46,835 nucleotides of DNA. It comes from a virus. The notes beneath the pieces were generated by a model, which searched no databases, was not told the origin of the DNA, and was given only the letters and a program-made list of their open reading frames with translations. Position numbers and translations under genes: made by a program. The stretch spans positions 1 to 46,835 of IMG/VR virus record IMGVR_UViG_3300028831_000183, one strand, 5' to 3'. Of this stretch, positions 2,919-26,969 are shown piece by piece (the first letter of the stretch is position 1; each line of letters begins with the position of its first letter).

Positions 2919-4373
2919 CTAGATCGGAACAAACTGTTCCTCTGTATCAGGATAGTAAATTTCTTCTTGCTCATCTAATTCTTGCCCAATATTATCGACA
3001 AACGCGACAAGATAGCGCATGCTATCCATACCATGATCGTCTTTCTTGACAGGCTCTTCTTTTACCGGCTTTCCGTCCGCTGCTTTAGCCCAAACATAAC
3101 TCTCGATTTCATCGGCGGTACACGTCGGTTTATGGTTCTCAACCAGTTCAGGATCAACCTCAACTAATGCATCACGCATATACCGTATACGCGGCAGTCC
3201 GTCACCACGTAGACGCATACGCAGCTGGACAGCTTCTATACCAAGCTTGACGGGCTTAAAAGCGCGAATAGTTTCAAGTCCGTTCTTAGCGAGCGTTGCT
3301 CTATCTTCGGCATCATGATCAGCGATATATGCATATATTTCTTCTCGCTGCGGGTTAGGTATCGGTTGCGAACGACTATCAAGCAAAACATCACCATTAG
3401 CGTCCAATAGATACCATTTTTCCAATTGCTGTATCTGTTTCGCATGGTCGTCTACTAACCTTCCTGTCATGTATATCTCACGGTAGAGATATAATACATC
3501 GTCCGGTGAGAACGCCCACCACTGGCATACAAAAGGGTTATTATATCCAAAATCAATGCTAACAATACGTAACCAATCTAAGGGCGGATCGAACCAATCA
3601 CATAGGTGCTTCTCAGGATCATACTCATTGTAGATTGCGCCCTCAGCGCTTACCCAGAGGCCCTTGAAGAGCCTGAAAAAGCGAACACCGCTAAGATTAC
3701 CCAAAATTTCCATGACACGCTTACCAGCATCTGTAAGCACGCCTAGCGCATCGTATAATCGAGGATTATCTGTGTGAAACGACGGCAGCAGCTTGATTGA
3801 TTTGCGCTGCAAAATCCAATGATGCTGCGTTGCGGGATTGCAATCGCCTAGCACAAGAGTGTAGGGCGCGTTGCCTGCCCGGCCTGTCGCTCTAGTTGTT
3901 AAGGTCTCCCAATCGCCTAGCAAAAACTCTTCGACCTGATTGCCATATATAATGTCAAATTCACCAGATAGGAGCTTTTCTGCCTTGTCTAGTCCGTCAA
4001 CGTAAAGCCTTGATCCATTTGGATAATCATACCATTCTGGTTTTTGACCACCGAACGGCTTTACGTCGTTGCCTTTTAGATGAATAATCTTGGCGTAGGT
4101 ACGTAGTACAGTAGCAAATAATGATGCCCTCGTTTTCCTAACAATAATACCGACGCTCTTTGGATACTGCCGCAAGAACGTATCGACACGCCAGAGCGCC
4201 GCAAACGTTTTACCCGTTTCAGCCGGGCCTTGAATGATGATCTCAAAATCTTGAATTGTTTGGATTTCAAGCGCGCTACCTCGAAATTCCGGTTGTATCG
4301 CTTTCGCCGCTTGCAAGCTGCGGCGCCGCTGTTGCGCTAATCGTTGCGTTATCATCGGTCGATAGGATTTCAA
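2919..4373 (-). CDS. terL: Terminase large subunit
   Basis: 484 aa. Walker A-like QGPAETGKTF, then an ATPase half followed by an acidic nuclease half (IADHDAEDR, DDHGMDSMRY). Follows a small HTH protein. Confidence 0.85.
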   Translation of the reverse strand: MKSYRPMITQRLAQQRRRSLQAAKAIQPEFRGSALEIQTIQDFEIIIQGPAETGKTFAALWRVDTFLRQYPKSVGIIVRKTRASLFATVLRTYAKIIHLKGNDVKPFGGQKPEWYDYPNGSRLYVDGLDKAEKLLSGEFDIIYGNQVEEFLLGDWETLTTRATGRAGNAPYTLVLGDCNPATQHHWILQRKSIKLLPSFHTDNPRLYDALGVLTDAGKRVMEILGNLSGVRFFRLFKGLWVSAEGAIYNEYDPEKHLCDWFDPPLDWLRIVSIDFGYNNPFVCQWWAFSPDDVLYLYREIYMTGRLVDDHAKQIQQLEKWYLLDANGDVLLDSRSQPIPNPQREEIYAYIADHDAEDRATLAKNGLETIRAFKPVKLGIEAVQLRMRLRGDGLPRIRYMRDALVEVDPELVENHKPTCTADEIESYVWAKAADGKPVKEEPVKKDDHGMDSMRYLVAFVDNIGQELDEQEEIYYPDTEEQFVPI

Positions 4374-12383: not shown

Positions 12384-13349
12384 ATGACAACCCCTCACAA
12401 GCACCGCCAGACCGTTATCGATCGCGCAATTTCCCAGGGCAAGACAATTTCCGATCACGACGTAAGCGTATCGCAAACCTTGAAAGAGGTTGCAATCGAT
12501 TTCGTACGTACGTACCAGGGAACCAATTCCTTTGTGCAGAGCATTGCTATCTATCTAGAGGATCGCGGCTCGCTTTCGCTTGCGCAGATGCGCGGCGCCT
12601 TGAATGTGATGGTAGGGGAGTACAAGGCCGAGCAACGCGTGCGTACGGCGCTAGTAGCTCCCAAATTCACCACGGCAGAGTACACACAGGCGCAAGCGTT
12701 GTACGGCGCTGAGGGACGGTCAGGGATCGATCGGCCCGCGTTCTACGTCGATATGGCAGCGTCAAAACCTCAGAAATCGGTTTACATTACAGAAACCGAT
12801 CCGGTACTGAAGCAAGCCGCATGGGAAGAGCGAAACGGCAAGATCGTACCAAACGGCACTTACACAGTGCCGATCAACAATGCTGGCGAGTATCGCGTGA
12901 TCAAGCTCCAAGATGCGCCTGAGAAATTCAACAAGCCCGCTGGTACGCAAATCGCCAGTTACCAATCAGGTAGCGATAACGAAAGCGACTATACAGGATT
13001 TGCGTTCGTCAACGGCGATCGGTACACCCTTTGGCGAAAATTCTCGCGCGCGCATATAATCGAGCATGCTCTGGTTAAGCTGCTTTCGACAGGCAAGCAT
13101 GCCGAATTTGGACGCTTGTGGGCGATGGAAGCTGGCGCGTGTTTTATCTGTGGTCGCAAGCTAACTGTTCCGATCAGCAAGAAAGCTGGTATCGGCCCAA
13201 TTTGCGCCGCAAACGTCGGTATCGACATTGTAGCACTTGCTACGCTCGCTGGCGACAAGGATCAAGCAATCGAGCAAAACGAACTACGCGACAAGATCGA
13301 TCGGCAAGCGAAAGCGCAAGCCGACATGGACGAACTATTCCCCCAGTAG
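12384..13349 (+). CDS. Hypothetical protein with a DUF6011-like C-terminal Cys motif
   Basis: 321 aa. CFICGRKLTVPISKKAGIGPICA matches the CxxCGRxLT...GIGPxC signature seen in phage DUF6011 proteins. Function unknown. Confidence 0.55.
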   Translation: MTTPHKHRQTVIDRAISQGKTISDHDVSVSQTLKEVAIDFVRTYQGTNSFVQSIAIYLEDRGSLSLAQMRGALNVMVGEYKAEQRVRTALVAPKFTTAEYTQAQALYGAEGRSGIDRPAFYVDMAASKPQKSVYITETDPVLKQAAWEERNGKIVPNGTYTVPINNAGEYRVIKLQDAPEKFNKPAGTQIASYQSGSDNESDYTGFAFVNGDRYTLWRKFSRAHIIEHALVKLLSTGKHAEFGRLWAMEAGACFICGRKLTVPISKKAGIGPICAANVGIDIVALATLAGDKDQAIEQNELRDKIDRQAKAQADMDELFPQ

Positions 13350-13616: not shown

Positions 13617-13826
13617 ATGGAAACTATACGTATAGATTTAGCTCCGCTTGTAGATCGCGATCTTGAGTACATTATACGCATCGCAGTTAGTAGTAACTCG
13701 TCTGAACTAAAAACAGATAAGACATCACAAACTGCAACGATTACAACGCCGTTAGCCGACATAGCGCAGCAAATTGCACATCGCTTGATAACGTGCGGTA
13801 TTGGTTTTACTTACATACCCCGTTAG
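13617..13826 (+). CDS. Hypothetical protein
   Basis: 69-aa ORF with an AAAGG RBS. Confidence 0.4.
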   Translation: METIRIDLAPLVDRDLEYIIRIAVSSNSSELKTDKTSQTATITTPLADIAQQIAHRLITCGIGFTYIPR

Positions 13827-13849
13827 GGGGATTACACAGGAGTGTTAAC

Positions 13850-14233
13850 ATGCCAGGCATTAGACGCGAAAATTGGAATGGTTCCAATTGGATACGCAAA
13901 GATAAGCGGCTGGCAATTTATCTTCGCGATCAGTTCCGATGTATCTATTGCAATCGCAATCTAGCTAACGTGCCCGCACGCGATCGTACGCTTGATCATG
14001 TGGTTCCAGTAGCAAGCGGCGGCGACAATGAGCCGACAAACCTCGTCACCTGCTGTACTCGATGCAACGAGCGTAAGGGTGACAAGAGCCTATGGGAGCA
14101 AGCAACCGATCCGCAAGTTGTCACGCGTGTCTGTGAAGCACTCGACCGCCCGATCAATCGAGCGCTTGCAAAAGCGATCCTTGACGGCACACTTGATCTA
14201 TCTGATGTGCTACAGAAAGTGAGCGTATCATGA
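13850..14233 (+). CDS. HNH endonuclease (classical HNHc)
   Basis: LDHVVPVASGGDNEPTNLVTCCTRCNERKGDK. The ATG at 13850 has an AGGAG RBS. The track ORF begins earlier, at 13793. Confidence 0.8.
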   Translation: MPGIRRENWNGSNWIRKDKRLAIYLRDQFRCIYCNRNLANVPARDRTLDHVVPVASGGDNEPTNLVTCCTRCNERKGDKSLWEQATDPQVVTRVCEALDRPINRALAKAILDGTLDLSDVLQKVSVS

Positions 14234-14436
14234 AGCTGTTTGTAGTTGAATTTAACGGTGTGTATTTGAGCGGATATGGTCTGATACTTGCACCAGACGA
14301 AGATGCAGCACGCCAGATGATCCCCAAAAACGGACTAGACGGCTACAAGCCAGAGGATAGCATGTCTGTTATCGATATAACTGATAAGCTACGAAAAAGT
14401 GGCGATCGATATTTAATTTGGGACGGCGATTACTAA
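14230..14436 (+). CDS. Hypothetical protein
   Basis: 68 aa. ATGA overlap with the HNH stop. Confidence 0.5.
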   Translation: MKLFVVEFNGVYLSGYGLILAPDEDAARQMIPKNGLDGYKPEDSMSVIDITDKLRKSGDRYLIWDGDY

Positions 14437-14459
14437 GCACAAGAAAGCGAGTAACATAC

Positions 14460-14669
14460 ATGTTCACAGCAATCGTTAACTATGTCAATGCTAGGTGCGA
14501 TCTCGCCGTCATACAGGCTACAGCGCCAAACGACAAACCGCGTGTAGACAGAGCGCTCGCACTTGTGCGCAAGACCGAGCTAGAGCTAGCTCAGTCTATA
14601 GCCGAACGTGATAACGACACAGCAAGCGGGCAGCTTGATCATCTAAGACACTTTCACGGTATCGGTTAA
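14460..14669 (+). CDS. Hypothetical protein
   Basis: 69 aa from the internal ATG. The track start at 14418 overlaps the previous gene. Confidence 0.4.
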   Translation: MFTAIVNYVNARCDLAVIQATAPNDKPRVDRALALVRKTELELAQSIAERDNDTASGQLDHLRHFHGIG

Positions 14670-14706
14670 TTACTGCGTTAGCAGTTTCTCATAGGAGTAA
14701 TGCATC

Positions 14707-15234
14707 ATGTGCCAAGATCGGCGCAAGAACAACCTGGCATACGTCATGCGACTAAAAGCGCAGCTTGCGCACCTGGAACAAGAAAATAAATCGCTCAGTA
14801 TATCACGCTGGTTTGGTTGTCTTAATCGAAACGGGCTAGATAAGGCGCTCGCCAAGCTCGATTTGACTGACACATGGTTGCTATTTCTTGACGTAGATTA
14901 TCTAAAAGCACTCAATAATCGTTTGGGCAAACCGCAAGCGGGCGCATTAATCAAGGCATGCATCAAGCCGCGTAGTGGCGACATTATTGGTACATTCGGT
15001 CAATGGTTTTCCGGTGACGAATTTGCTGGTGTTTTCTGGTCGAAAGCAGATGCAATCGGATATGCGCAGCGTACACAAATGCGTATGCATGCATACGGTA
15101 TTAGTGCTACGTTTGTTATTCTGCCGACAAGCTATCGCGTGACGCCTCACGTGACGCTCGATTATGCTGATGCGCTGTGTAACTACGTCAAGCAAGAGTT
15201 AAAGAAACGCGATTTGATTATCGTATTGGGGTAG
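14707..15234 (+). CDS. Minimal GGDEF-domain nucleotide cyclase (SGDEF variant) with an N-terminal coiled coil
   Basis: 175 aa. GCLNRNGL, LFLDVDYLKALNNRLG, FSGDEFAGVF and ISATFVI line up with GGDEF motifs (TGLxNR, DxDxFKxxND, GGDEF, SxG). AGGAG RBS at 9 nt. Confidence 0.7.
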   Translation: MCQDRRKNNLAYVMRLKAQLAHLEQENKSLSISRWFGCLNRNGLDKALAKLDLTDTWLLFLDVDYLKALNNRLGKPQAGALIKACIKPRSGDIIGTFGQWFSGDEFAGVFWSKADAIGYAQRTQMRMHAYGISATFVILPTSYRVTPHVTLDYADALCNYVKQELKKRDLIIVLG

Positions 15235-15236
15235 AA

Positions 15237-15689
15237 ATGAAATCACTACTTGTGTCTATTGATCCCGGTGGAACGACAGGTTTTTGTGTATTTCAATTTC
15301 CGTCTGGGATTATTACGGAAACATACGCAGTTCACACGGCACTAGAGGTACGTTTCAGCAATCGGCTCTGGTTTCGCTCTTTTTTTCTAAAATATCAGGA
15401 AGAGATAGGAATTATCTTACTAGAGCGCTTTAAGCTGTTTCGCAACCCTAAAACGATGGAAGCGCAAATCAATAGCGAATTTCCGAGTGTACGTATTATC
15501 GGTATTGTTGAAGCACAAGCGGAGATGTACGGATTGTTCGATCGTATTAGATTTCAAGAGCCGGGCGATCGAAAGTCTGCTAACATTCCACGCTATGACT
15601 GGGCAGCAGTAGGACCTAGTGACCATGTAAAAGATGCATATCGACACGCGCGCTACTACACACTAATGCATAGGGAGCAAGCATTGTGA
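15237..15689 (+). CDS. RuvC-like Holliday junction resolvase
   Basis: 150 aa. Motifs VSIDPGGTTGF (first catalytic Asp), LLERF (Glu) and HVKDAYRHARYY (C-terminal Asp/His). Confidence 0.7.
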   Translation: MKSLLVSIDPGGTTGFCVFQFPSGIITETYAVHTALEVRFSNRLWFRSFFLKYQEEIGIILLERFKLFRNPKTMEAQINSEFPSVRIIGIVEAQAEMYGLFDRIRFQEPGDRKSANIPRYDWAAVGPSDHVKDAYRHARYYTLMHREQAL

Positions 15690-15925
15690 GTAGTGAAATG
15701 CAACAGATACCGAAATACCGTGATACGGGTTTGCCGCGCTTAGGCTTTCTATTGTTAGATACAATACTGAAATATGGCAAACCTGTAGCCGTTCGCTGCG
15801 ATTATTGTGGTAAGACTTCCGGACCTTTTTTCTGCATTAGTGTCGGTTGTAGCATTGTACCGACGCCGTTTGCGACTGATATACATCATTTATATGTATC
15901 TCATTGTCAGGAGTGCATGCTGTGA
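15686..15925 (+). CDS. Hypothetical Cys-containing protein
   Basis: 79 aa. GTGA overlap with the RuvC stop and an AGGGAG RBS. Confidence 0.4.
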   Translation: MSSEMQQIPKYRDTGLPRLGFLLLDTILKYGKPVAVRCDYCGKTSGPFFCISVGCSIVPTPFATDIHHLYVSHCQECML

Positions 15926-17337
15926 AAACACTACGTATCTACCAAGAGGAGCCGTATTTTAAGGGTCTAGAAGAGAATTTCTTGCTTGCCGACGATCGCG
16001 GTTTGGGTAAAACGGTCGTTGCAGTTGAAATTGCTAAACGTGTAATGGAATATTTGTACAAACCAGCACTAATCATCGTTCCATTGCATCTAAAGCCCCA
16101 GTGGTGGCAAGAGGTCATCGATCAGGTACCTGATGCGATCGGTATGGATTTAGAGGCGTCAACTCCGTTACCGCAACCTTTTTCGAGCAAGAAGCCATTT
16201 TGGATCATTGCACACTATGAGAGTGTATTGCGGCATTTTAAGACGTTGCAAAAAACACAATGGGCGATTGTAGTAGTAGATGAAGCACACCGCATTAAAA
16301 ACAAAGACGCGCAACGCACAAAAGCGATTAAGCAAATCAAGGCGCGGCACAAGATTGCTCTAACTGGCACGCCGTACGATCGCAATCCGGCTGACATTTG
16401 GAGTATACTAAACTGGTTGCGACCCGATATATTCAAGTCATACTGGGACTTTTTCAGGGCGCATGTCGATTATGAAGGTGATCTAGGCGGCGCGAGAACA
16501 ATCAAAGGCGTACGCGATCCTGAGAAATTCACACGTGCTATCGGGCCGTATGTTATTCAACGCTCCAAACGTGACGTAGCTCCGCAACTGCCGCCCAAAA
16601 TCGAACAGTATATCGACGTACAGATGACAATGGTTCAGCAAGTTCTGTACGATCGTATACGCGAACTAGCGGAGATCGATCTAGCACGTGACGATGGATC
16701 AACGATGCTTGTACCTAATCATTTGGCGCGTATCCTTCGATTGCAACAAGCAGCTGTTGATCCGCGTTTGCTTGGATCAGATGAAAACGGTGGTAAAATC
16801 GATTGGTTGCTCCAATATGTCAACGATAATCCTAACGACACGCTTTTAGTGTTTACGCGCTTTCGAGATACGGCAATCCGTGTTGCACACTTACTAGGCA
16901 TACCACACTATATCGGTGGTAGCGTACTCGAAAACCCACAAGATCACCCGCGTATCGTTGCAACTATCGATGCTGCAAAAGAGGGCCTAAATCTGGGACA
17001 TATTTGGAATACCATTTTCCTCGATTGCCATTGGTCAAGCATTGCCATGACACAAGCAATCGATCGTACGGAACGCGATCTACAAGCGACGGAGCCACGT
17101 GTAATTATGTACCTGGAAGCTGTTGACGGACACGGGCAACCGACGATTGACAGCTTAGTACGGCAAACCCTAGAGGCTAAATGGTCAACTGTTGATCTAG
17201 TTAACGCTTGGTTAAAAGGGGATTTCGCTGGTCTGAAGGGTGCAACTGCACGCGATCTGCAATCCGACGCCGTAGCTGATGCCTGCGCTTTTCCGGCATT
17301 AGAAAGCCATAAAACTTACCTTGACGGACGGTCGTAA
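15922..17337 (+). CDS. SNF2/DEAD-like helicase
   Basis: Motifs LADDRGLGKT, VVVDEAHRIKN (DEAH), LTGTP and a helicase C-terminal QAIDRTER. The GTG at 15922 (AGGAG at 8 nt, GTGA overlap) is preferred over the TTG at 15904. Confidence 0.85.
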   Translation: MKTLRIYQEEPYFKGLEENFLLADDRGLGKTVVAVEIAKRVMEYLYKPALIIVPLHLKPQWWQEVIDQVPDAIGMDLEASTPLPQPFSSKKPFWIIAHYESVLRHFKTLQKTQWAIVVVDEAHRIKNKDAQRTKAIKQIKARHKIALTGTPYDRNPADIWSILNWLRPDIFKSYWDFFRAHVDYEGDLGGARTIKGVRDPEKFTRAIGPYVIQRSKRDVAPQLPPKIEQYIDVQMTMVQQVLYDRIRELAEIDLARDDGSTMLVPNHLARILRLQQAAVDPRLLGSDENGGKIDWLLQYVNDNPNDTLLVFTRFRDTAIRVAHLLGIPHYIGGSVLENPQDHPRIVATIDAAKEGLNLGHIWNTIFLDCHWSSIAMTQAIDRTERDLQATEPRVIMYLEAVDGHGQPTIDSLVRQTLEAKWSTVDLVNAWLKGDFAGLKGATARDLQSDAVADACAFPALESHKTYLDGRS

Positions 17338-17391: not shown

Positions 17392-17772
17392 ATGCGAACC
17401 GATCCCGGAATTTTCCTAGCCGACGTCCCAGACACAAATGCGCCGCAGGTGCGCGTGCCAGATGTGTTGAAACGCGATCTTGTCACACCCGACACAATTG
17501 ACGCTAAGAAAGAACACCAAGCGCTCACAAGCCTTGCAAACAGCATTGAATTTCAAGAGTGGCAAGTACGTGATTACGCTGCGTCCGTGTACATGCTTAT
17601 TGACGGCGTAACGCGCGACGATGACTTAGTTGACCCAATTCTTGCACAAACCTATCAGGCGCTTGTAAAGGCCGCTCAACTACTCTCAGAAGGGCGAATG
17701 CATATCTACCGATATGCAAATAAGCTTGACGTGTTAGCACTTGCTGGGCGAGATACTGATCCTACCAAATAA
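17392..17772 (+). CDS. Hypothetical protein
   Basis: 126-aa ORF with a GGGGA RBS. Confidence 0.5.
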   Translation: MRTDPGIFLADVPDTNAPQVRVPDVLKRDLVTPDTIDAKKEHQALTSLANSIEFQEWQVRDYAASVYMLIDGVTRDDDLVDPILAQTYQALVKAAQLLSEGRMHIYRYANKLDVLALAGRDTDPTK

Positions 17773-17872
17773 CGGCTATTTGTTTGTACTGAGCCGTTTA
17801 GATACGGAAACAGAGCAAGCGGATCAAACGTGGAAATCGTCTATCGTGGCTTGCACTAACAGGAGTAGCGTA

Positions 17873-18232
17873 ATGTACAAGGAAATATCGGAACTAGTTA
17901 ACAAAACGCTTACAAGCGTTGTCAACAGTGATAACGAAGAGCTGATTTTTACGACGTTCACGGGCGAGAAGTACAAGCTGTACCATGAGCAAGATTGTTG
18001 TGAATACGTAACGATCGATGAGATCATAGGCGATCTTGACGATCTGGTCGGCGTACCTTTACGCATGGCGGAAGAGGTTAGTAACGAAGATGCGCCTGTG
18101 TTGACAGATGAAGAGTGTTACACATGGACGTTTTACAAGTTTGCTACCGTAAAGGGCTATGTAACCGTACGCTGGTTAGGTATATCTAACGGTTACTACT
18201 CCGAAAGTGTAGACTTTGCGCAAATATCCTAG
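17873..18232 (+). CDS. Hypothetical protein
   Basis: 119 aa from the ATG with an AGGAG RBS. The track start at 17741 overlaps the previous gene. Confidence 0.5.
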   Translation: MYKEISELVNKTLTSVVNSDNEELIFTTFTGEKYKLYHEQDCCEYVTIDEIIGDLDDLVGVPLRMAEEVSNEDAPVLTDEECYTWTFYKFATVKGYVTVRWLGISNGYYSESVDFAQIS

Positions 18233-19585: not shown

Positions 19586-20431
19586 ATGCAAATCGTCAAT
19601 CTAGATTACACAAAGTACCTTTCCGTGCTAGCGTACGGAAAGCCGGGGAGTGGAAAGACACATTTTCTTGGAACTGCATGCGACGATGACCGATCCTATC
19701 CTGTACTGCACGTTGACGTTTCAGGGAACCCTGAAACGCTTGCAAATCGACGTGATAGCACAAGCCCTAGGAAACTAGGGCGTGTACCATACGTCGTACG
19801 CTTGCAAAAGCTTTCCGAGCTTAACGTGATTTTCGATTGGTTTGACAAGGGGCAACCTGACAGTCACCCAATGGTTGCGAAGGGTTGTACACCAGGATAC
19901 AAAACATTGATATTTGACGGCGTAACGGCGATACAACGCCAATCGTTTAACGTCGTGCTAGGGCAAGATTTACAGCCCGGCGATGTGCCACTAAAGCCGG
20001 AATGGCCGACATACGCCGCCGTATTGCGTCAAATGCTCGTCATTGCATCGTGCTTCTTGCAACAGCTGCGTAATCGAAACATTCATGTCTTGGTTTCGTG
20101 TCTAGAGCACACAGATATACGCTACACGTCGCCTGGCATTGCTGCTACAGCGTACCAGTATACGGAGCCAGGCTTGCAAGGACAGGCCGTCACAGAGCTT
20201 CCGGGTGAAGCGCTTGCAGTGTTGCGCCTGTGCAATCGTGCAGCTGCGCAGATAGAAGTAATAAAAGCGCCTGAAATGCGCAATGCATACACGATTGCAC
20301 AACTGCGTGAAAATAGGTTTGTATATGCGAAGGATCAACACCACTTAGGCGGCATTTCAATCGGTGATAGCATTTACATGGGCGATCCGACAGTACCGAA
20401 ACTGTTAGACGCAATAGGAGCACAAGCATAG
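19586..20431 (+). CDS. AAA_24 / Sak4-like RecA-fold ATPase
   Basis: 281 aa. YGKPGSGKTHF lies close to the N-terminus and a Walker B-like LIFDGV follows. Followed by a DUF669-like gene, a common phage recombination pair. Confidence 0.65.
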   Translation: MQIVNLDYTKYLSVLAYGKPGSGKTHFLGTACDDDRSYPVLHVDVSGNPETLANRRDSTSPRKLGRVPYVVRLQKLSELNVIFDWFDKGQPDSHPMVAKGCTPGYKTLIFDGVTAIQRQSFNVVLGQDLQPGDVPLKPEWPTYAAVLRQMLVIASCFLQQLRNRNIHVLVSCLEHTDIRYTSPGIAATAYQYTEPGLQGQAVTELPGEALAVLRLCNRAAAQIEVIKAPEMRNAYTIAQLRENRFVYAKDQHHLGGISIGDSIYMGDPTVPKLLDAIGAQA

Positions 20432-20520
20432 CAGAAAGGTACCTATCGAAGCATAATCAAATGCGCGGCGCATGCAATAGCCGAAACTAAACAAAAACAC
20501 AACATAAACAGGAGTAAACA

Positions 20521-21045
20521 ATGTCATCTAAAAACAAACCGGAACCGATCGATCCAAGTCTCTTCGTTGATCCGATGGGCGGCGAAGATTATAAGGGTGA
20601 TGCTACCGATACGCCGGAAACGGGGTTCGTGATCGATTTCGCGAAAGTCCCGGACATTAGTGCGCCAGTACCAGCAGGGCAGTATGATGCAACAATCGTC
20701 AAGGCTGAAGCTGGCATAAGTAAAGCCGGCAATCCGATGATCAAGCTGCGCTGGCGCATTGATGACGACGGAGAATACTACCACCGGCAGATATTTGACA
20801 ACCTTGTCTTCACAGAGACCGCGCTATGGCGCGTGCGGCAGTTTCTCGCAGCGATCGGGTATGCCAGCGATTTCAAGGGTGAAATTAATCCCGAAAACTT
20901 GCTAGGCGAGAGTGCGATTATCGCACTCACAATCCAGGCAGGCGAAGGGATCAATCCTGAAACACAAGAGCCATATCCACCGCGCAACAGCATATCGAAG
21001 GTGTTACCACTTGGATCGCGGCGCAAAGTTGACGATCTGCTCTAA
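20521..21045 (+). CDS. DUF669-like protein (putative ssDNA-binding partner of AAA_24)
   Basis: 174 aa. The GQYDATIVKAE...GNPMIKLRWRI...LWRVRQFLAAIG pattern is typical of DUF669. AGGAG RBS. Confidence 0.55.
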   Translation: MSSKNKPEPIDPSLFVDPMGGEDYKGDATDTPETGFVIDFAKVPDISAPVPAGQYDATIVKAEAGISKAGNPMIKLRWRIDDDGEYYHRQIFDNLVFTETALWRVRQFLAAIGYASDFKGEINPENLLGESAIIALTIQAGEGINPETQEPYPPRNSISKVLPLGSRRKVDDLL

Positions 21046-21117: not shown

Positions 21118-21372
21118 ATGAATGCTGCAAATGAATATTTTTTGTTTCGACAATTTGCAGAATTTGTGCCGTATATTGTAACTGATGCAGATGTAAATAT
21201 GCCAGTTTGCCCGTGTTGCGATCGGATAGATAACACAACACGCATGCGGCGAATAAATACCGCGTATCACAATGATAATGACAATTTGCTTGTGTCTTGC
21301 GCGGCGTGCTATCAAGAAACAATAGATTATTATGCCGAACTAGTAGCAGAGTATTGGGACGGTGTGCTATGA
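21118..21372 (+). CDS. Hypothetical zinc-finger-like protein
   Basis: 84 aa with CPCC...CAAC pairs. Its stop overlaps the next ATG (ATGA). Confidence 0.45.
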   Translation: MNAANEYFLFRQFAEFVPYIVTDADVNMPVCPCCDRIDNTTRMRRINTAYHNDNDNLLVSCAACYQETIDYYAELVAEYWDGVL

Positions 21373-22904
21373 GTAACAATGGATTGATTACCGTCAATCG
21401 ACAAGGTAGAGAAGCGTTTGACGATAACGAGCATGGATACGATGATAGTTACGTACGCGCGCAACGCGATTACAAGCCGCCGCTACTGCGTATGGTTGAT
21501 TTTCGTGTATACGCCGTTTTGGCAATCGCCGGCCTTACGTGTTTTGTCGTCTTTTTCATCATTTACTCGTTGTGGAAATGGCTCTACTGCATGCGCGTAG
21601 AACGCTACTACACGTGTCGGTCGCTAGATGCTGCGGAGCCGATCGGATTTGCCGTTGTATTTTTTCTGCCTATGCTACTTGTGTGTTTGCATCTAGGATT
21701 AAAATACTGGACACGAACGCGCTATGAAAACGCGCTGGCAAATAAAGCAAATCTTGTGCTTGATCGCTATGGGGATCAACAGCCGGCTGATCTTTTCGAT
21801 CGTCTTACAACGCCGCAAGTAGTAGCACTCCTATCCACGCGTTACGAAAGCGCAACAGTAATGGAAACTGCTATCGCGCGGCACAAAATGTATCGCGGCG
21901 TGAATGCGCTTTCGCTCTCGAATAGGACCGATAGCGGAAACACACAGCAAGTGCTTGACACGGACGCAGGCACAACGCTTGTGCCGCTAGAGCCAGACTT
22001 TTGGATACCGATCGCAAACGATCACCCGCATGTCATTCTAGCAGGTGCAACAGGGGAAGGAAAAACTGTCACGGCAAAAGCGATCCTACTGCCGCGTTTG
22101 CAAGCAAACGAATTGCTATTCGTGATCGATCCTCACTCATCGAATTGGTACGGTATTGCTGGACGCGGCGGCGGCGAAGATTGGCATGATGTGGTAAGCG
22201 CAATTAGTGATGTGTTTAACGAGTACAAATCGCGCATCAACGCGCGGCATCAGCATTTACTTGTAACAGAACAGGAAATGCCAGAAGATTATTTTACACG
22301 CTTAAATGTGCTGGTAGATGAAGCATTTTTGATTAAGGAAAATTTGGATCACGGCAGTAGAAAACAAGTTAACTATTGGACGCTGCTTGCTGAAATCATG
22401 GGTAGTGGCGCTCGGAAGATCGGCATATCGCTAATCCTTTTAACACAGACAGCGAATGTAGAGGATTTGGGTTTGTCAGGCCCTTTGCGCCGTAACTTTT
22501 TCCGCATTGCGCTCGATACACAATCAATCAGGCTTATGATCGCGCGAGAGGAAACCGATCACGCGCGCAAAGTGCAGCTATACGAAAGCTTGATCGGCAC
22601 GCAATACCCCGCAACATCAGAAATCGGCGGTCGTATTGAACTGCTAGACCGATCGGGCTTGCTCCCAATGGCTACACAGCATATAGATGCCAAATCCCGC
22701 CTATGGGCGCCGCCGTCCGTCCGTCCCGTAGGTGCAGAAAACGGACGGAACGGCGCCCAGCGGACGGACGGACGGAATATGATCGATCGCCTGGTCGAAC
22801 TCCGTAGTAAAGGAATTTCAAGAGAAGATGCGCGCTTGCAGCATGGGTTGATATTCGAGAATGCCGATTGGACGATTGCAGGACAGATTTTAGGAGAGGA
22901 TTAG
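21369..22904 (+). CDS. Membrane-anchored FtsK/SpoIIIE-like P-loop ATPase
   Basis: 511 aa from the ATG at 21369. Two or three N-terminal TM helices, Walker A LAGATGEGKT and Walker B VLVDEAF. Confidence 0.6.
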   Translation: MSNNGLITVNRQGREAFDDNEHGYDDSYVRAQRDYKPPLLRMVDFRVYAVLAIAGLTCFVVFFIIYSLWKWLYCMRVERYYTCRSLDAAEPIGFAVVFFLPMLLVCLHLGLKYWTRTRYENALANKANLVLDRYGDQQPADLFDRLTTPQVVALLSTRYESATVMETAIARHKMYRGVNALSLSNRTDSGNTQQVLDTDAGTTLVPLEPDFWIPIANDHPHVILAGATGEGKTVTAKAILLPRLQANELLFVIDPHSSNWYGIAGRGGGEDWHDVVSAISDVFNEYKSRINARHQHLLVTEQEMPEDYFTRLNVLVDEAFLIKENLDHGSRKQVNYWTLLAEIMGSGARKIGISLILLTQTANVEDLGLSGPLRRNFFRIALDTQSIRLMIAREETDHARKVQLYESLIGTQYPATSEIGGRIELLDRSGLLPMATQHIDAKSRLWAPPSVRPVGAENGRNGAQRTDGRNMIDRLVELRSKGISREDARLQHGLIFENADWTIAGQILGED

Positions 22905-24117: not shown

Positions 24118-24342
24118 GTGCCGATTTATAGAAAATTGTATATAGATCGTAATATCTCACCAGATGCGAAATCCGCATTAGCAAGAGATTTTAGGCGCAC
24201 AATATACTCCGAAATGTTACGACATAAGGGTATACGTGTAGCAGAGAACCATGTATTCATTATAACATCGACACATACTAAATTTACCCCACAGAAAATA
24301 ATCTATACATATGCTGCTACCATCATGGGGATTGCACAATGA
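24118..24342 (+). CDS. Hypothetical protein
   Basis: 74 aa with a GTG start. Its stop overlaps the polymerase ATG (ATGA). Confidence 0.4.
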   Translation: MPIYRKLYIDRNISPDAKSALARDFRRTIYSEMLRHKGIRVAENHVFIITSTHTKFTPQKIIYTYAATIMGIAQ

Positions 24343-26969
24343 TAGAGCCAAAAGCGCCGTACGCTGATTGCGTCCATTGCCCACTAGCCGATCGCCCTTG
24401 TGTGCCTTCGCACCTGCCCCCAGGTGCGTTTGTGCTGGTCGTAGGGGAAGCCCCAGGTGCAACCGAGGTACAGATGGGCCAGCCGTTTGTCGGACCTTCT
24501 GGGCAGCTTCTAGACCACATAGCGCGGTATGCAGGTATCGATCCTGCGTCAATCGGTCGTACAAATGCTGTGCTCTGTCGGCCGGCTGGAAATGCCGATC
24601 CGCCCGACAGTGCCGTAACAGCATGCGCGCCGCGCTTGGCACATGAGATAAATAGCGTATCTCCGCACGTTATTGTGCCGATGGGGAATATCGCGCTTGC
24701 TGCTGTTGATCGTCTCTCGCACGCTACAGCACATCTGCATGGATCGATCACGTCTAGGCGCGGAAAGTGGTACACTATAGCGCACTTCGATGTGCTGCCC
24801 GCGTATCACCCGGCATATGTGCTGCGTTCGCCGCAATATTTCCAAGATATGCTTAGTGACTTTCGCAAAGTGAGCAACCGTGTAAATCAGCGTGTAACTA
24901 AACCATTTAACACAAAGGACGTACGATATATCCCCTGCGATGCGTCAAATAAACATCGTGTGATTGAATACCTCAATCGCATGCCGGAAGGTGCAATACT
25001 TGCTTTCGACGTGGAAAGCGATCACCTGCAATGGTACGATACGCCAGCACAAGACGCTGCACAGGTACTAGCGCTTGGCGTGGCATGGCGACCTAACCAA
25101 GTAGTTGTCATTCCATTTGAGTTCATACTACATGCCAATCACTACGATGTATATCAAGCAGTGCAATCGGCGTTCGATCGTGGTAAACCTATTGCACACA
25201 ACGGTAAATTTGATCAACACAATCTAGATCATGGCGATATTAGCGTCACGCTTGCGTATGACACAATGCTAGCGCATTACGTGTTAGACGAAACAGGGAA
25301 GCATGGATTAAAAGGGCTTGTACAAGATTGGCTCGAATGCGAAGATGACTACGAATACAGATTGATCACGTCGTGGTTTGAGGAAAACAAAATCAAAAAA
25401 GAGGATCGCCGTTACGGACTAGTCCCAAAAGATCGCTTATATGAATATCTCGCAATCGACGTTGCTGCTACACTTGCACTTTGGCCGCTATTTAAGGCTC
25501 AATTGGAGCAAGAGCAATTGCTTGATTGGCCTTTCCTTAACGTTTTAACGCCAGTTGCAAACGCGATTGCTCATGTAGAGCAAAACGGCATCATGGTAGA
25601 CAAGCCCTATCTTGAAAAGGTAGGAGCACACGTAGATACTAAGATAGTAGAGCAAGCACAGACGATCCATGCAATAGTACAAGAGCGTTTATTGCTGTGG
25701 TTGCAAGCAGGTAACATTGTTGTACCTAAAGCAGATTGGATCAAGGATCGCACTACGTACGCGCGGTGTATCAGTCGCATGCGCAACGATTTCAATCCAG
25801 GATCGTGGCAGCAGGTACAAGTATTCCTGTACGATGTATTAAAACTGAGACATACAGCACGGCTCGGATATAAGACCGACGCGCGATCAACGCAGGAAGA
25901 AAATCTGCTTTCGCTCAAACCAAACGATACAAGCGGCTTTATTGATGCGCTCATGCACTATCGACGCTTGGAAAAGATACGAGGCACATACGTTAACAAA
26001 CTATTAGCAATGGCGGATATTGACGATCGCGTGCATATCAATTACCTCATTCATGGAACTGAGATCGGTCGATTGAGTGCAACAGATGCTCTGCATGGTA
26101 TTCCACGGCCGGGTGACGATGAATACGGCGCTGCTATTCGTGGCGCATTTATCGCGCGGCCAGGTCATGTATTGGTGATCGCGGATTTCTCACAAGCGGA
26201 GTTGCGGGTTTTTGCTGCCATGAGCAAAGAGCCGTTCTTGCTTTCGATATTCAACGAAAATCGCGATCCGCACGGGGAAGCATGCAAAATGCTATTTGAG
26301 GGCAACCAGCTTGTAGATGACGCAGCATACGATATGCTTACGCAGTCCTGGTACTGGCCTGACGACAAGCGTTATCAAGGCGTAAGAGACATTAGCAGCT
26401 ATTGGAAAGAACGACGTACGACCGCGAAAAATGTGGTTTTTGGAGGGCTTGTCTATCTAGGGGGGCCAAACGGGATCGCCGGCATGCTGGGGGGCAAGCT
26501 TACTGCTGCGCAAATCAAGCCAGTTTTGGATCGCATGCTTGCTCGTATGCCTACGGCTCGAAACTGGCAACAAGAGCAGTTCCGTTTTGCACGCTCACAC
26601 GGTTACGTGCAATCGCGTTTCGGTCGAAAGCGGCGATTTCCGATCATCACAGATGATAACTTTGACGAAATACGGAAAGCATCGGTACATATGCCGGTCG
26701 CTAGCGGTGCGAGCGATCTAACGTTGCTTTCGATTGTCGAATTAGACGCAGCCGGCTACAAGGTATGCGGCACATGGCACGACAGTATCATTTGCGAAGT
26801 GCCGATCGCACAAGCTGAAAGGTGTGCAAATTTTATGCTCAATACCATGACACACCTGGGAGAATATTGGTTTCCAGAGGTTGCATGGAAGGCTGATATT
26901 GAACGTCTTGCAGATGGTAGCTTTCCTACGCGCTGGTACTCAAAAATTCCCGATTTTACTATATCGTGA
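24339..26969 (+). CDS. Family 4 UDG-like domain fused to a family A DNA polymerase with 3'-5' exonuclease
   Basis: 876 aa. UDG part: CVHC, GEAPG...PFVGPSG, HPAYVLR. Exonuclease part: AFDVESD. PolA motifs: DFSQAELRV (A), RRTAKNVVFGGLVYLG (B), WHDSIICEV (C). Confidence 0.85.
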   Translation: MIEPKAPYADCVHCPLADRPCVPSHLPPGAFVLVVGEAPGATEVQMGQPFVGPSGQLLDHIARYAGIDPASIGRTNAVLCRPAGNADPPDSAVTACAPRLAHEINSVSPHVIVPMGNIALAAVDRLSHATAHLHGSITSRRGKWYTIAHFDVLPAYHPAYVLRSPQYFQDMLSDFRKVSNRVNQRVTKPFNTKDVRYIPCDASNKHRVIEYLNRMPEGAILAFDVESDHLQWYDTPAQDAAQVLALGVAWRPNQVVVIPFEFILHANHYDVYQAVQSAFDRGKPIAHNGKFDQHNLDHGDISVTLAYDTMLAHYVLDETGKHGLKGLVQDWLECEDDYEYRLITSWFEENKIKKEDRRYGLVPKDRLYEYLAIDVAATLALWPLFKAQLEQEQLLDWPFLNVLTPVANAIAHVEQNGIMVDKPYLEKVGAHVDTKIVEQAQTIHAIVQERLLLWLQAGNIVVPKADWIKDRTTYARCISRMRNDFNPGSWQQVQVFLYDVLKLRHTARLGYKTDARSTQEENLLSLKPNDTSGFIDALMHYRRLEKIRGTYVNKLLAMADIDDRVHINYLIHGTEIGRLSATDALHGIPRPGDDEYGAAIRGAFIARPGHVLVIADFSQAELRVFAAMSKEPFLLSIFNENRDPHGEACKMLFEGNQLVDDAAYDMLTQSWYWPDDKRYQGVRDISSYWKERRTTAKNVVFGGLVYLGGPNGIAGMLGGKLTAAQIKPVLDRMLARMPTARNWQQEQFRFARSHGYVQSRFGRKRRFPIITDDNFDEIRKASVHMPVASGASDLTLLSIVELDAAGYKVCGTWHDSIICEVPIAQAERCANFMLNTMTHLGEYWFPEVAWKADIERLADGSFPTRWYSKIPDFTIS

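Follow-up and report, generated by a model that had tools for sequence, protein, structure and literature searches.

A 175-residue protein encoded by positions 14,707 to 15,234 of a viral genome (IMG/VR record IMGVR_UViG_3300028831_000183, positions 1 to 46,835; this whole stretch of 46,835 nucleotides is hereafter called the window) belongs to the GGDEF family of nucleotide cyclases, of which it is a minimal member, composed of a short, putative N-terminal zipper and a bare palm domain bearing the variant motif SGDEF. The reading that we favour, with a rough probability of 0.55, is that this accessory siphovirus gene encodes a minimal, self-dimerising GGDEF dinucleotide cyclase, limited by feedback, which would probably make cyclic di-GMP (c-di-GMP) and act on effectors of the host.

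Membership of the GGDEF family

Taken singly, the window protein matches the GGDEF profile PF00990 with an E-value of 0.012 and 15.8 bits, for a gathering score of 23.8, and TIGR00254 with an E-value of 4e-4 and 20.1 bits, for a threshold of 37.4; when it is used as the phmmer query against the PDB, the E-values are 0.23 or worse. Its homology to GGDEF proteins, which we consider as established, rests on the family profile and on the fold. A first homologue search gathered 22 homologues and the window's own gene call, all of 126–183 amino acids (aa), and GQWFSGDEF is invariant in the alignment of these 23 sequences. The profile of this alignment matches 42 chains of the PDB, all of them GGDEF cyclases, the best being DosC (E 8e-6). 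Moreover, PF00990 is matched at E<=0.1 by 20 of the 23 members (best E 8.3e-7), and one cellular member of the family clears the PF00990 cut-off, with 25.6 bits. The GGDEF assignment proposed in a previous reading made from the sequence alone (hereafter the sequence-only reading) is thus found at the level of the family, the single sequence remaining below threshold.

The AlphaFold2 model of the window protein (predicted local distance difference test, pLDDT, 88.3; predicted template modelling score, pTM, 0.79) displays a helix (residues 10–29), a palm, and an SGD turn (S102-G103-D104) located between strands 94–101 and 105–110. When this model is compared to the PDB with Foldseek, the top 50 matches are GGDEF cyclases without exception, with E-values down to 2.8e-8. 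The leading ones are coiled-coil or stalk forms, namely SiaD, WspR, GCN4-WspR and DgcB, and a Geobacter Hypr GGDEF (6d9m) is also among the top matches. Searched against a viral structure library, the model comes closest to uncharacterised "diguanylate cyclases" of SP-15, phage G and Bordetella phage CN1. The family profile and Foldseek therefore both lead to GGDEF proteins, so that the outcome which would have spoken against the sequence-only reading, neither a profile nor a fold match, is not observed, and the profile, the model, Foldseek and the heptad pattern of the family (see below) all agree with the coiled coil followed by a bare GGDEF palm that had been proposed from the sequence alone.

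The palms of mCpol (Panoptes OptS) and of Cas10 belong to the same superfamily, and the window protein might instead be an mCpol- or Cas10-like cyclic (oligo)adenylate synthase. Indeed, PF22335 (Cas10-Cmr2_palm2) is matched by 14 of the 23 members (best E 2.6e-5), and minimal stand-alone palm cyclases resembling the window protein exist, as illustrated by OptS. The GGDEF matches are nevertheless both stronger and more common, neither Cas10 nor mCpol is found among the 42 PDB sequence matches or the top 50 fold matches, and mCpol largely lacks the GGDEF motif, whereas xGDE is invariant here. Furthermore, mCpol works as a tetramer, its products are 2',3'-linked and an effector gene accompanies it; none of this appears to hold for the window protein, which has no linked effector gene. 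On this evidence, we rejected membership of the mCpol/Cas10 group, the least probable of the readings that we considered.

A large family of minimal zipper-SGDE proteins

An exhaustive profile search, counted in clusters at 50% identity, shows that the family comprises at least 234 clusters at E<=1e-10 and 28 at E<=1e-30, with members that are nearly all stand-alone proteins of 140–200 aa. Conservation was assessed on 170 aligned members, to which the figures below refer. D62, N70, G103, D104 and E105 are invariant (170/170), and D64 (166/170), R89 (167/170), D/E92 (162/170), S102 (156/170), K162 (163/170) and R/K168 (152/170) are near-invariant, R41 being conserved in 154/170. The DxD motif is aligned to the DVD or DID of solved cyclases and, in the entry motif of the domain, F36, C38 and L39 are invariant within the close family, G37 being nearly so. 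As the motif and the catalytic residues are invariant across the 170 homologues, the match to GGDEF cyclases is far beyond chance. The metal-binding Asp, the acidic pair of the motif and the phosphate-binding Lys/Arg that are expected of an active diguanylate cyclase all appear to be in place.

Strictly, the GG[D/E]EF signature is not matched by the window protein, the motif of which is SGDEF. Since S102 is found in 156 of the 170 members, this Ser is a family signature rather than a lesion. The sequence-only reading was thus right in pointing to a variant site, which is however not peculiar to the window protein, as a large family including cellular members carries SGDE. A natural SGDEF motif is also that of ECA3270 of Pectobacterium atrosepticum, likened here to the window protein by its reported motif alone, and this motif has been reported to be active or compatible with c-di-GMP synthesis (PMC3974145).

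The N-terminal helix displays the hydrophobic periodicity of a zipper: positions 13, 16, 20, 23, 27 and 30 are occupied by L, I, V, M or F in 68–83% of the 170 homologues, against 5–26% for the positions in between. This heptad pattern spans three to four heptads and leads directly into the entry motif of the domain. Asn27 of the window protein occupies an "a" position, and the GCN4 zipper likewise has an Asn at an "a" position. In one homologue (P0004), an insertion of exactly 7 residues is present in the N-terminal helix (columns 36–42 of alignment A1) and the heptad register is retained, as would be expected of a genuine coiled coil. Because the heptad zipper abuts the entry motif, the architecture can be regarded, by analogy, as what nature offers in place of the GCN4-WspR fusion (3i5c), which was engineered, and the putative zipper could be what brings the catalytic homodimer together.

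A putative product-inhibition site

No product-inhibition site (I-site) had been seen in the sequence-only reading, and this probably has to be corrected. A near-invariant RxxD motif, R89-x-x-D92, is aligned by HMMER, with a two-residue gap after it, to the I-site RxxD of DosC and of two other solved cyclases, 9p6j and DgcR, and it sits in the AlphaFold2 model just ahead of the first hairpin strand (94–101). On account of this near-invariance and of its alignment with solved I-sites, the enzyme would probably be product-limited rather than unrestrained. The I-site of GacA binds c-di-GMP although the product of this enzyme is cyclic GMP-AMP (cGAMP) (PMC6456294); the presence of RxxD therefore suggests a feedback by c-di-GMP, without fixing the identity of the product.

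The same motif raises another possibility, that of a catalytically dead protein which, through RxxD and perhaps half an active site, would bind cyclic dinucleotides and act as a sponge for host c-di-GMP or for a defence signal. Phage cyclic-nucleotide sponges are an established strategy, and an almost invariant RxxD, the loss of the signature Gly and weak profile scores would all be compatible with it. A mere binder would however need neither the metal ligands and the general base nor the phosphate-binding Lys/Arg and the sugar-face Asn that are conserved over 170 sequences, and it would have no need to obey the rule that excludes GGEEF (see below); SGDEF enzymes, in addition, can be active. 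We thus consider a sponge as improbable.

The base-reading position and the nature of the product

In GacA, Ser348, the equivalent of PleD Asp344, reads the Watson-Crick face of the base and Asn339 its sugar face, while Asp374 is a ligand of Mg and Glu375 serves, from across the dimer, as the general base (PMC6456294). In the window protein, Gly79 falls in the column of PleD Asp344, HMMER setting it opposite the GD of DosC "WGHNTGD", so that the replacement of the base-reading Asp by Gly, initially proposed from an alignment made by eye, is confirmed. Of the Asn and Asp pair that recognises guanine, only the former (Asn70) is present, the position of the latter being that of Gly79.

Across the 170 members, position 79 is occupied by N in 77, D in 48, S in 40 (including many of the closest relatives of the window protein, which itself lacks the Ser/Thr of Hypr enzymes), G in 4 and T in 1. 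Position 99, which is Q in 62 and R in 84 members, covaries with positions 75 and 79. A first covarying group combines Y/H75, R99 and D or N79 with the motif SGDE[ILF]. The clade of the window protein (about 63 members) combines K75, Q99 and S, N or G79 with the motif SGDEF, and Asp79 never occurs in it. In a distance tree of this clade, S and N interleave among neighbours and Gly79 arose three separate times. Given its frequency of 4/170 and this switching between S, N and G, Gly79 appears to be a rare state at a labile position.

Two other features of the sequence bear on the choice of nucleotide. First, Ser/Thr-type readers have exclusively GGDE[F/Y] and never GGEEF, Asp-type readers having D (57%) or E (43%) at the centre of the motif (PMC6456294). 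The centre of the motif is Asp104 in 170/170 members, in line with this Goldilocks rule for non-Asp readers. Second, an Arg acting across the dimer is found in 94% of cyclases and favours guanine (PMC6456294). Judging from its position in the motif and from the start of the helix, Arg41 would be this cross-dimer Arg, and its retention argues against a full switch of the Hypr type.

All these features taken together, c-di-GMP is the most likely product, because the guanine-favouring Arg41, Asn70 and RxxD are retained; the existence of cellular relatives can also be cited in its favour. Purine selectivity would probably be loosened, since Gly79 cannot read the Watson-Crick face, and a relaxed or altered purine specificity, resulting from Gly79 together with Lys75 and Gln99, is a serious alternative. 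With the same fold and mechanism, the main product could then be 3',3'-cGAMP, cyclic di-AMP (c-di-AMP) or a mixture, which would hijack or jam another signalling or defence pathway of the host. Asp79 is absent from the clade of about 63 members, in which S, N and G covary with K75 and Q99, and the interchange of these three residues among close relatives would fit a rapid functional divergence. A Ser at the reader position permits the use of ATP in GacA (PMC6456294). In mCpol, Ser and Asn tune the choice between adenine and guanine (Panoptes mCpol work), and the central Asp fits the rule of Ser-type readers. Conversely, the guanine-biasing cross-dimer Arg41, which is replaced in Hypr enzymes, is kept in 154/170 members; Asn, the commonest state at position 79, is associated with guanine in the mCpol work; and a phage making cGAMP would presumably risk triggering host effectors of the CBASS type (cyclic oligonucleotide-based antiphage signalling system). 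A main product other than c-di-GMP is thus conceivable, but we give it a minor share of the probability. The altered product evoked in the sequence-only reading is accordingly possible without being strongly indicated, Gly79 being rare and labile and Arg41 being retained, in place of the non-Arg residue of Hypr enzymes.

A bolder proposal, and a rather doubtful one, is that the whole K75/Q99 clade might have left c-di-GMP synthesis, the switching S/N/G residue setting which cyclic dinucleotide each phage makes (cGAMP, c-di-AMP or mixed products), as an offensive or decoy signal directed at host signalling or at nucleotide-based immunity. If true, this would be a virus-encoded family of second-messenger synthases, diversifying in an arms race.

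An accessory gene in a variable slot

The window has the appearance of an almost complete genome, from a siphovirus lineage without cultivated relatives, and several metagenomic contigs of 45–49 kb share the synteny of its replication module. No isolated phage has a family A DNA polymerase more than 27% identical to that of the window. Structural and lysis genes (terminase, portal, capsid protease, tape measure, lambda-like tail tube, amidase and holin) and a replication arm (primase, HNH, SNF2 helicase, PD-(D/E)XK exonuclease, Sak4/AAA_24 and family A polymerase) are recognised. Library scans of the window open reading frames (ORFs) place the SGDEF gene in this replication arm, as previously described. 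No tRNA gene is found in the window and no integrase among the ORFs scanned.

The SGDEF gene is present in five syntenic phages: that of the window and four related contigs of up to 49 kb (L001, L002, L005 and L006), which keep the order HNH, small ORFs, SGDEF, RuvC-like, small ORF, SNF2. In three sister phages (L068 to L070, contigs of 45–46 kb), the whole module is kept and the slot holds only small unrelated ORFs. No SGDEF gene is detected in the 10-kb loci of these three phages, either by tblastn or by the family hidden Markov model on six-frame translations, and the HNH flank is common to the sister phages with and without the gene. As three syntenic sisters lack the gene in the same slot, it is accessory cargo of a variable slot and probably not a replication factor. 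The slot between the HNH and RuvC-like genes (14230–14706 in the window) contains small ORFs of 61–106 aa that differ from phage to phage, and none of them has a family match. A scan for promoters and terminators around the SGDEF gene performs no better than on shuffled sequence, and we therefore refrain from proposing that the gene is transcribed independently, in the manner of a moron.

The location of the gene between the primase, the RuvC-like gene and the helicase, with which it is apparently co-transcribed, could have indicated that the palm serves phage replication or recombination rather than signalling, as a small nucleotidyltransferase or a priming factor. GGDEF, Cas10 and Thg1 palms indeed share ancestry with polymerase palms, and 14/23 members touch the Cas10 palm2 model. 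The gene is however dispensable, since the three sisters without it keep the whole module, and its relatives are found in unrelated contexts in other phages and in sugar-nucleotide operons in bacteria. Moreover, the GGDEF substrate residues are all kept, and the top 50 structural matches are cyclases, not polymerases. A replication enzyme is thus very unlikely, and we rejected this reading on the points counted against it.

Among about 60 window ORFs scanned, none encodes a PilZ, EAL, HD-GYP or other recognisable cyclic-nucleotide partner, and a scan of 42 further window ORFs for PilZ, EAL and HD-GYP contributes to this negative result. Nor does the phage lineage contain a conserved partner or effector gene beyond ordinary synteny. 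A known defence component was also considered and discarded, PADLOC giving only a chance-level match to BrxC.

Distribution in phages and bacteria

A pattern search restricted to the narrow K75/Q99 clade retrieves a single IMG/VR contig (L003) and none of 185,579 species genomes. The Y/H75-R99 clade is found in 10 IMG/VR contigs and in 50 bacterial loci, in cyanobacteria, Latescibacterota, Gemmatimonadota, Planctomycetota and Chloroflexota. Only the K75/Q99 variant thus appears to be phage-restricted in the data searched. The ORFs scanned from nine of these 10 contigs and from L003 include integrases, terminases, capsid genes, polymerases and MazG, in varied contexts.

The bacterial copies are mostly stand-alone ORFs of 150–175 aa. 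In Gemmatimonadota and Latescibacterota, a conserved chromosomal operon associates an NTP-transferase, a GHMP kinase, the SGDE protein and a protein of the N-acetylglucosamine (GlcNAc) 2-epimerase family. Examples are found at 1982–6009 of L051 and in L031, L034 and L047, where the SGDE protein has 163–168 aa and the kinase is galactokinase-like. This setting is that of a sugar-nucleotide pathway, and neither a prophage nor a defence island; a sugar-nucleotide operon is a typical setting of c-di-GMP control. It suggests a dedicated minimal cyclase wired to the sugar-nucleotide pathway. The design of a minimal zipper-SGDE cyclase thus exists already in cells, and phages carry it as well.

A contig of the cyanobacterium Iningainema tapete BLCC-T55 (L008/L018, 264,967 bp) carries an SGDE gene, a 214-aa ORF, which is found both in an IMG/VR viral region and in the genome of the cultured organism. 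This copy is a candidate prophage-borne one, in an organism open to study.

Comparison with known systems

The best structural matches of the window protein (E 3e-8 to 9e-8, TMq 0.61–0.70) are SiaD of P. aeruginosa (7e6g), WspR (3bre), GCN4-WspR (3i5c) and Caulobacter DgcB (6ttr), in which, as in the window protein, a helical dimerisation element runs into the GGDEF palm. They have in common with it the metal, phosphate and sugar-face residues and RxxD. They differ from it by their regulatory input (SiaC binding, or a receiver (Rec) domain), the artificial GCN4 fusion excepted, whereas a zipper of about three heptads is the entire N-terminus of the window protein. They also have GG[D/E]EF, a base-reading Asp and an Arg before the motif, where the window protein has SGDEF, Gly79 and Gln99, as well as Lys75.

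Hypr GGDEF enzymes, such as GacA of Geobacter (5VS9/6d9m) and Bd0367 of Bdellovibrio, make 3',3'-cGAMP. They resemble the window protein in having something other than Asp at the Watson-Crick-face position, where most sister proteins have Ser, a strict central Asp and a retained I-site, which is a putative one in the window protein. Unlike them, the window protein has a Gly and not a Ser/Thr at this position, no Rec domain, and a Ser as the first residue of the motif in place of Gly; its cross-dimer residue is an Arg, as opposed to Tyr, Ser, Ala or Gln in Hypr enzymes.

Among phage proteins, the "diguanylate cyclase" of SP-15, gp350 of phage G and the protein of Bordetella phage CN1 are GGDEF proteins, some of them equally small (146–183 aa), which are only 16–22% identical to the window protein over the structural alignment. 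No published activity was found for them in the literature searched, which, for phage-encoded GGDEF enzymes, yielded only a phage peptide binding the host YfiN and the Panoptes mCpol work. GGDEF enzymes, the activity of SGDEF, activation by coiled coils, specificity changes of the Hypr type and annotated phage GGDEF genes were thus known already. The new elements are the large minimal zipper-SGDE family, its phage-restricted variant with K75, Q99 and a non-Asp residue at position 79, the accessory status of the gene in a defined phage lineage, and the near-invariant RxxD.

Possible mode of action during infection

In the reading that we favour, namely a minimal cyclase probably making c-di-GMP, the zipper of about three heptads would pair two palm domains, so that no sensory input would be needed. 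Each domain would hold one purine nucleoside triphosphate, by its metals through Asp62, Asp64 and Asp104, by its phosphates through Lys162 and Arg168, and by the sugar face of its base through Asn70. Glu105 of one subunit would then activate the 3'-OH of the nucleotide held by the other one, and the Arg89-Asp92 site would probably bind the product and cap the output. As the gene is apparently co-transcribed with replication genes, the enzyme should raise the level of the cyclic dinucleotide in the infected cell. Because the phage encodes no receptor, the product would have to act on host effectors, for example those of motility, surface polysaccharide or receptor display; superinfection exclusion could be another behaviour concerned.

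Several points weigh against this proposal. The single window sequence lies under the Pfam and TIGRFAM thresholds. Three covarying changes face the substrate, His to Lys75, Asp to Gly79 and Arg to Gln99, and c-di-GMP is for this reason not assured as the product. The spacing between RxxD and SGDEF is of 9 residues (7 in shorter members) for a canonical value of 5, and the I-site is thus putative. The literature searched contains no biochemistry for any member of the family. Finally, megablast of the region and tblastn of the protein against isolated phages and plasmids give no match, and c-di-GMP receptors of the host are presumed.

Phages are known to degrade or sequester the cyclic-nucleotide signals of bacteria, or to perturb them indirectly. 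No case of a phage making such a signal with a GGDEF enzyme of its own was found in the literature searched, and the family provides a very small, input-free cyclase for testing this idea. If it is active, this would show phages overriding, in the course of an infection, the host's own control of motility, surface sugars or biofilm. In addition, the Ser, Asn, Gly and Asp variants that occur naturally at the base-reading position, together with the two changes to which they are coupled, lend themselves to the study of nucleotide choice by GGDEF enzymes, and the protein might serve as a small genetic device with which to raise the level of cyclic dinucleotides.

Gene start and coordinates of the features

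The ORF, its SGDEF, LDVD and Asn70 are all as they had been described from the sequence alone (Table 1). The gene call of the contig by the Joint Genome Institute (JGI; P0001, 162 aa) begins at Met14, 13 codons downstream of the ATG at 14707. The 175-aa start is favoured over it, because of the AGGAG sequence located upstream and because the residues preceding Met14 are kept among homologues. The phosphate-binding pair was equated with that of PleD from its placement in the C-terminal helix, and this equivalence is a probable one.

Table 1. Positions, in the window, of the SGDEF gene, of its predicted functional elements and of the neighbouring genes.
Feature	Position	Strand	Basis or remark
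Zipper-SGDEF protein gene (GGDEF-family palm domain)	14707..15234	+	ORF, 175 codons
Shine-Dalgarno-like AGGAG	14693..14697	+	Read from the sequence, 9 nucleotides 5' of the ATG at 14707
N-terminal helix, putative heptad-repeat (a/d) zipper, residues 10-30	14734..14796	+	Model and a/d pattern of the family
SRWFGCLNRN, counterpart of the canonical DxLTGLxNR entry motif	14803..14832	+	Includes Arg41
Asp62-Val-Asp64, metal-binding DxD (PleD D327 equivalent)	14890..14898	+	Alignment, conservation; within LDVD, residues 61-64, 14887-14898
Asn70, sugar-face base contact (PleD N335, GacA N339)	14914..14916	+	170/170; role according to PMC6456294
Lys75 to Gly79	14929..14943	+	Gly79 (codon 14941-14943) at the PleD D344/GacA S348 position; Lys75 replaces the usual His
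Arg89-Ser-Gly-Asp92, RxxD, putative product-inhibition (I) site	14971..14982	+	Alignment, conservation
Gln99, in place of the conserved Arg of canonical R-x-GGDEF	15001..15003	+	Conservation, covariation
SGDEF hairpin turn; Asp104 Mg ligand, Glu105 general base	15010..15024	+	Codons tcc ggt gac gaa ttt; model, roles according to PMC6456294
Lys162 to Arg168, probable phosphate-binding basic pair (PleD K442/R446 equivalents)	15190..15210	+	Position in the C-terminal helix
HNH endonuclease gene, upstream edge of the variable slot	13793..14233	+	PHROG HNH families, E 2.6e-16
RuvC-fold 150-aa protein gene, downstream neighbour	15237..15689	+	AlphaFold2 and Foldseek
SNF2-family helicase gene, downstream of the slot	15904..17337	+	phrog_62, E 3e-79; syntenic in all sister phages

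Other features of the genome

The protein encoded immediately downstream, at 15237–15689, has neither a Pfam match nor a PDB sequence match. Its model (pLDDT 95.3) is matched in Foldseek by RuvC of T. thermophilus (E 3e-7, TM 0.65), as well as by E. coli RuvC and poxvirus resolvases, and D9, E63, H130 and D133 are invariant in its alignment. The RuvC neighbour named by the sequence-only reading is thus right at the level of the fold. This protein belongs to phrog_1981, of unknown function, the annotation of which could benefit from the RuvC-type fold.

Further genes of the window call for a brief mention. The protein encoded at 12384–13349 has a C-terminal DUF6011 motif, and its length varies from 320 to 522 aa across sister phages, at the same position. 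The ORF at 17741–18232 strongly matches DUF7448 (E 6e-27), and its place beside the PD-(D/E)XK exonuclease gene is conserved in at least one sister phage, L070. The 535-aa ORF at 21297–22904, in the replication arm, gives only weak matches (E about 1e-4), to the terminase large subunit and to FtsK-like ATPases, and is separate from the true terminase at 2919–4373. Finally, the sister phage L002 encodes (20350–20522 onward) an 868-aa protein that is a fusion of a uracil-DNA glycosylase (UDG), a 3'-5' exonuclease and a family A polymerase, and the 876-aa polymerase of the window (24339–26969) is probably the same fusion.

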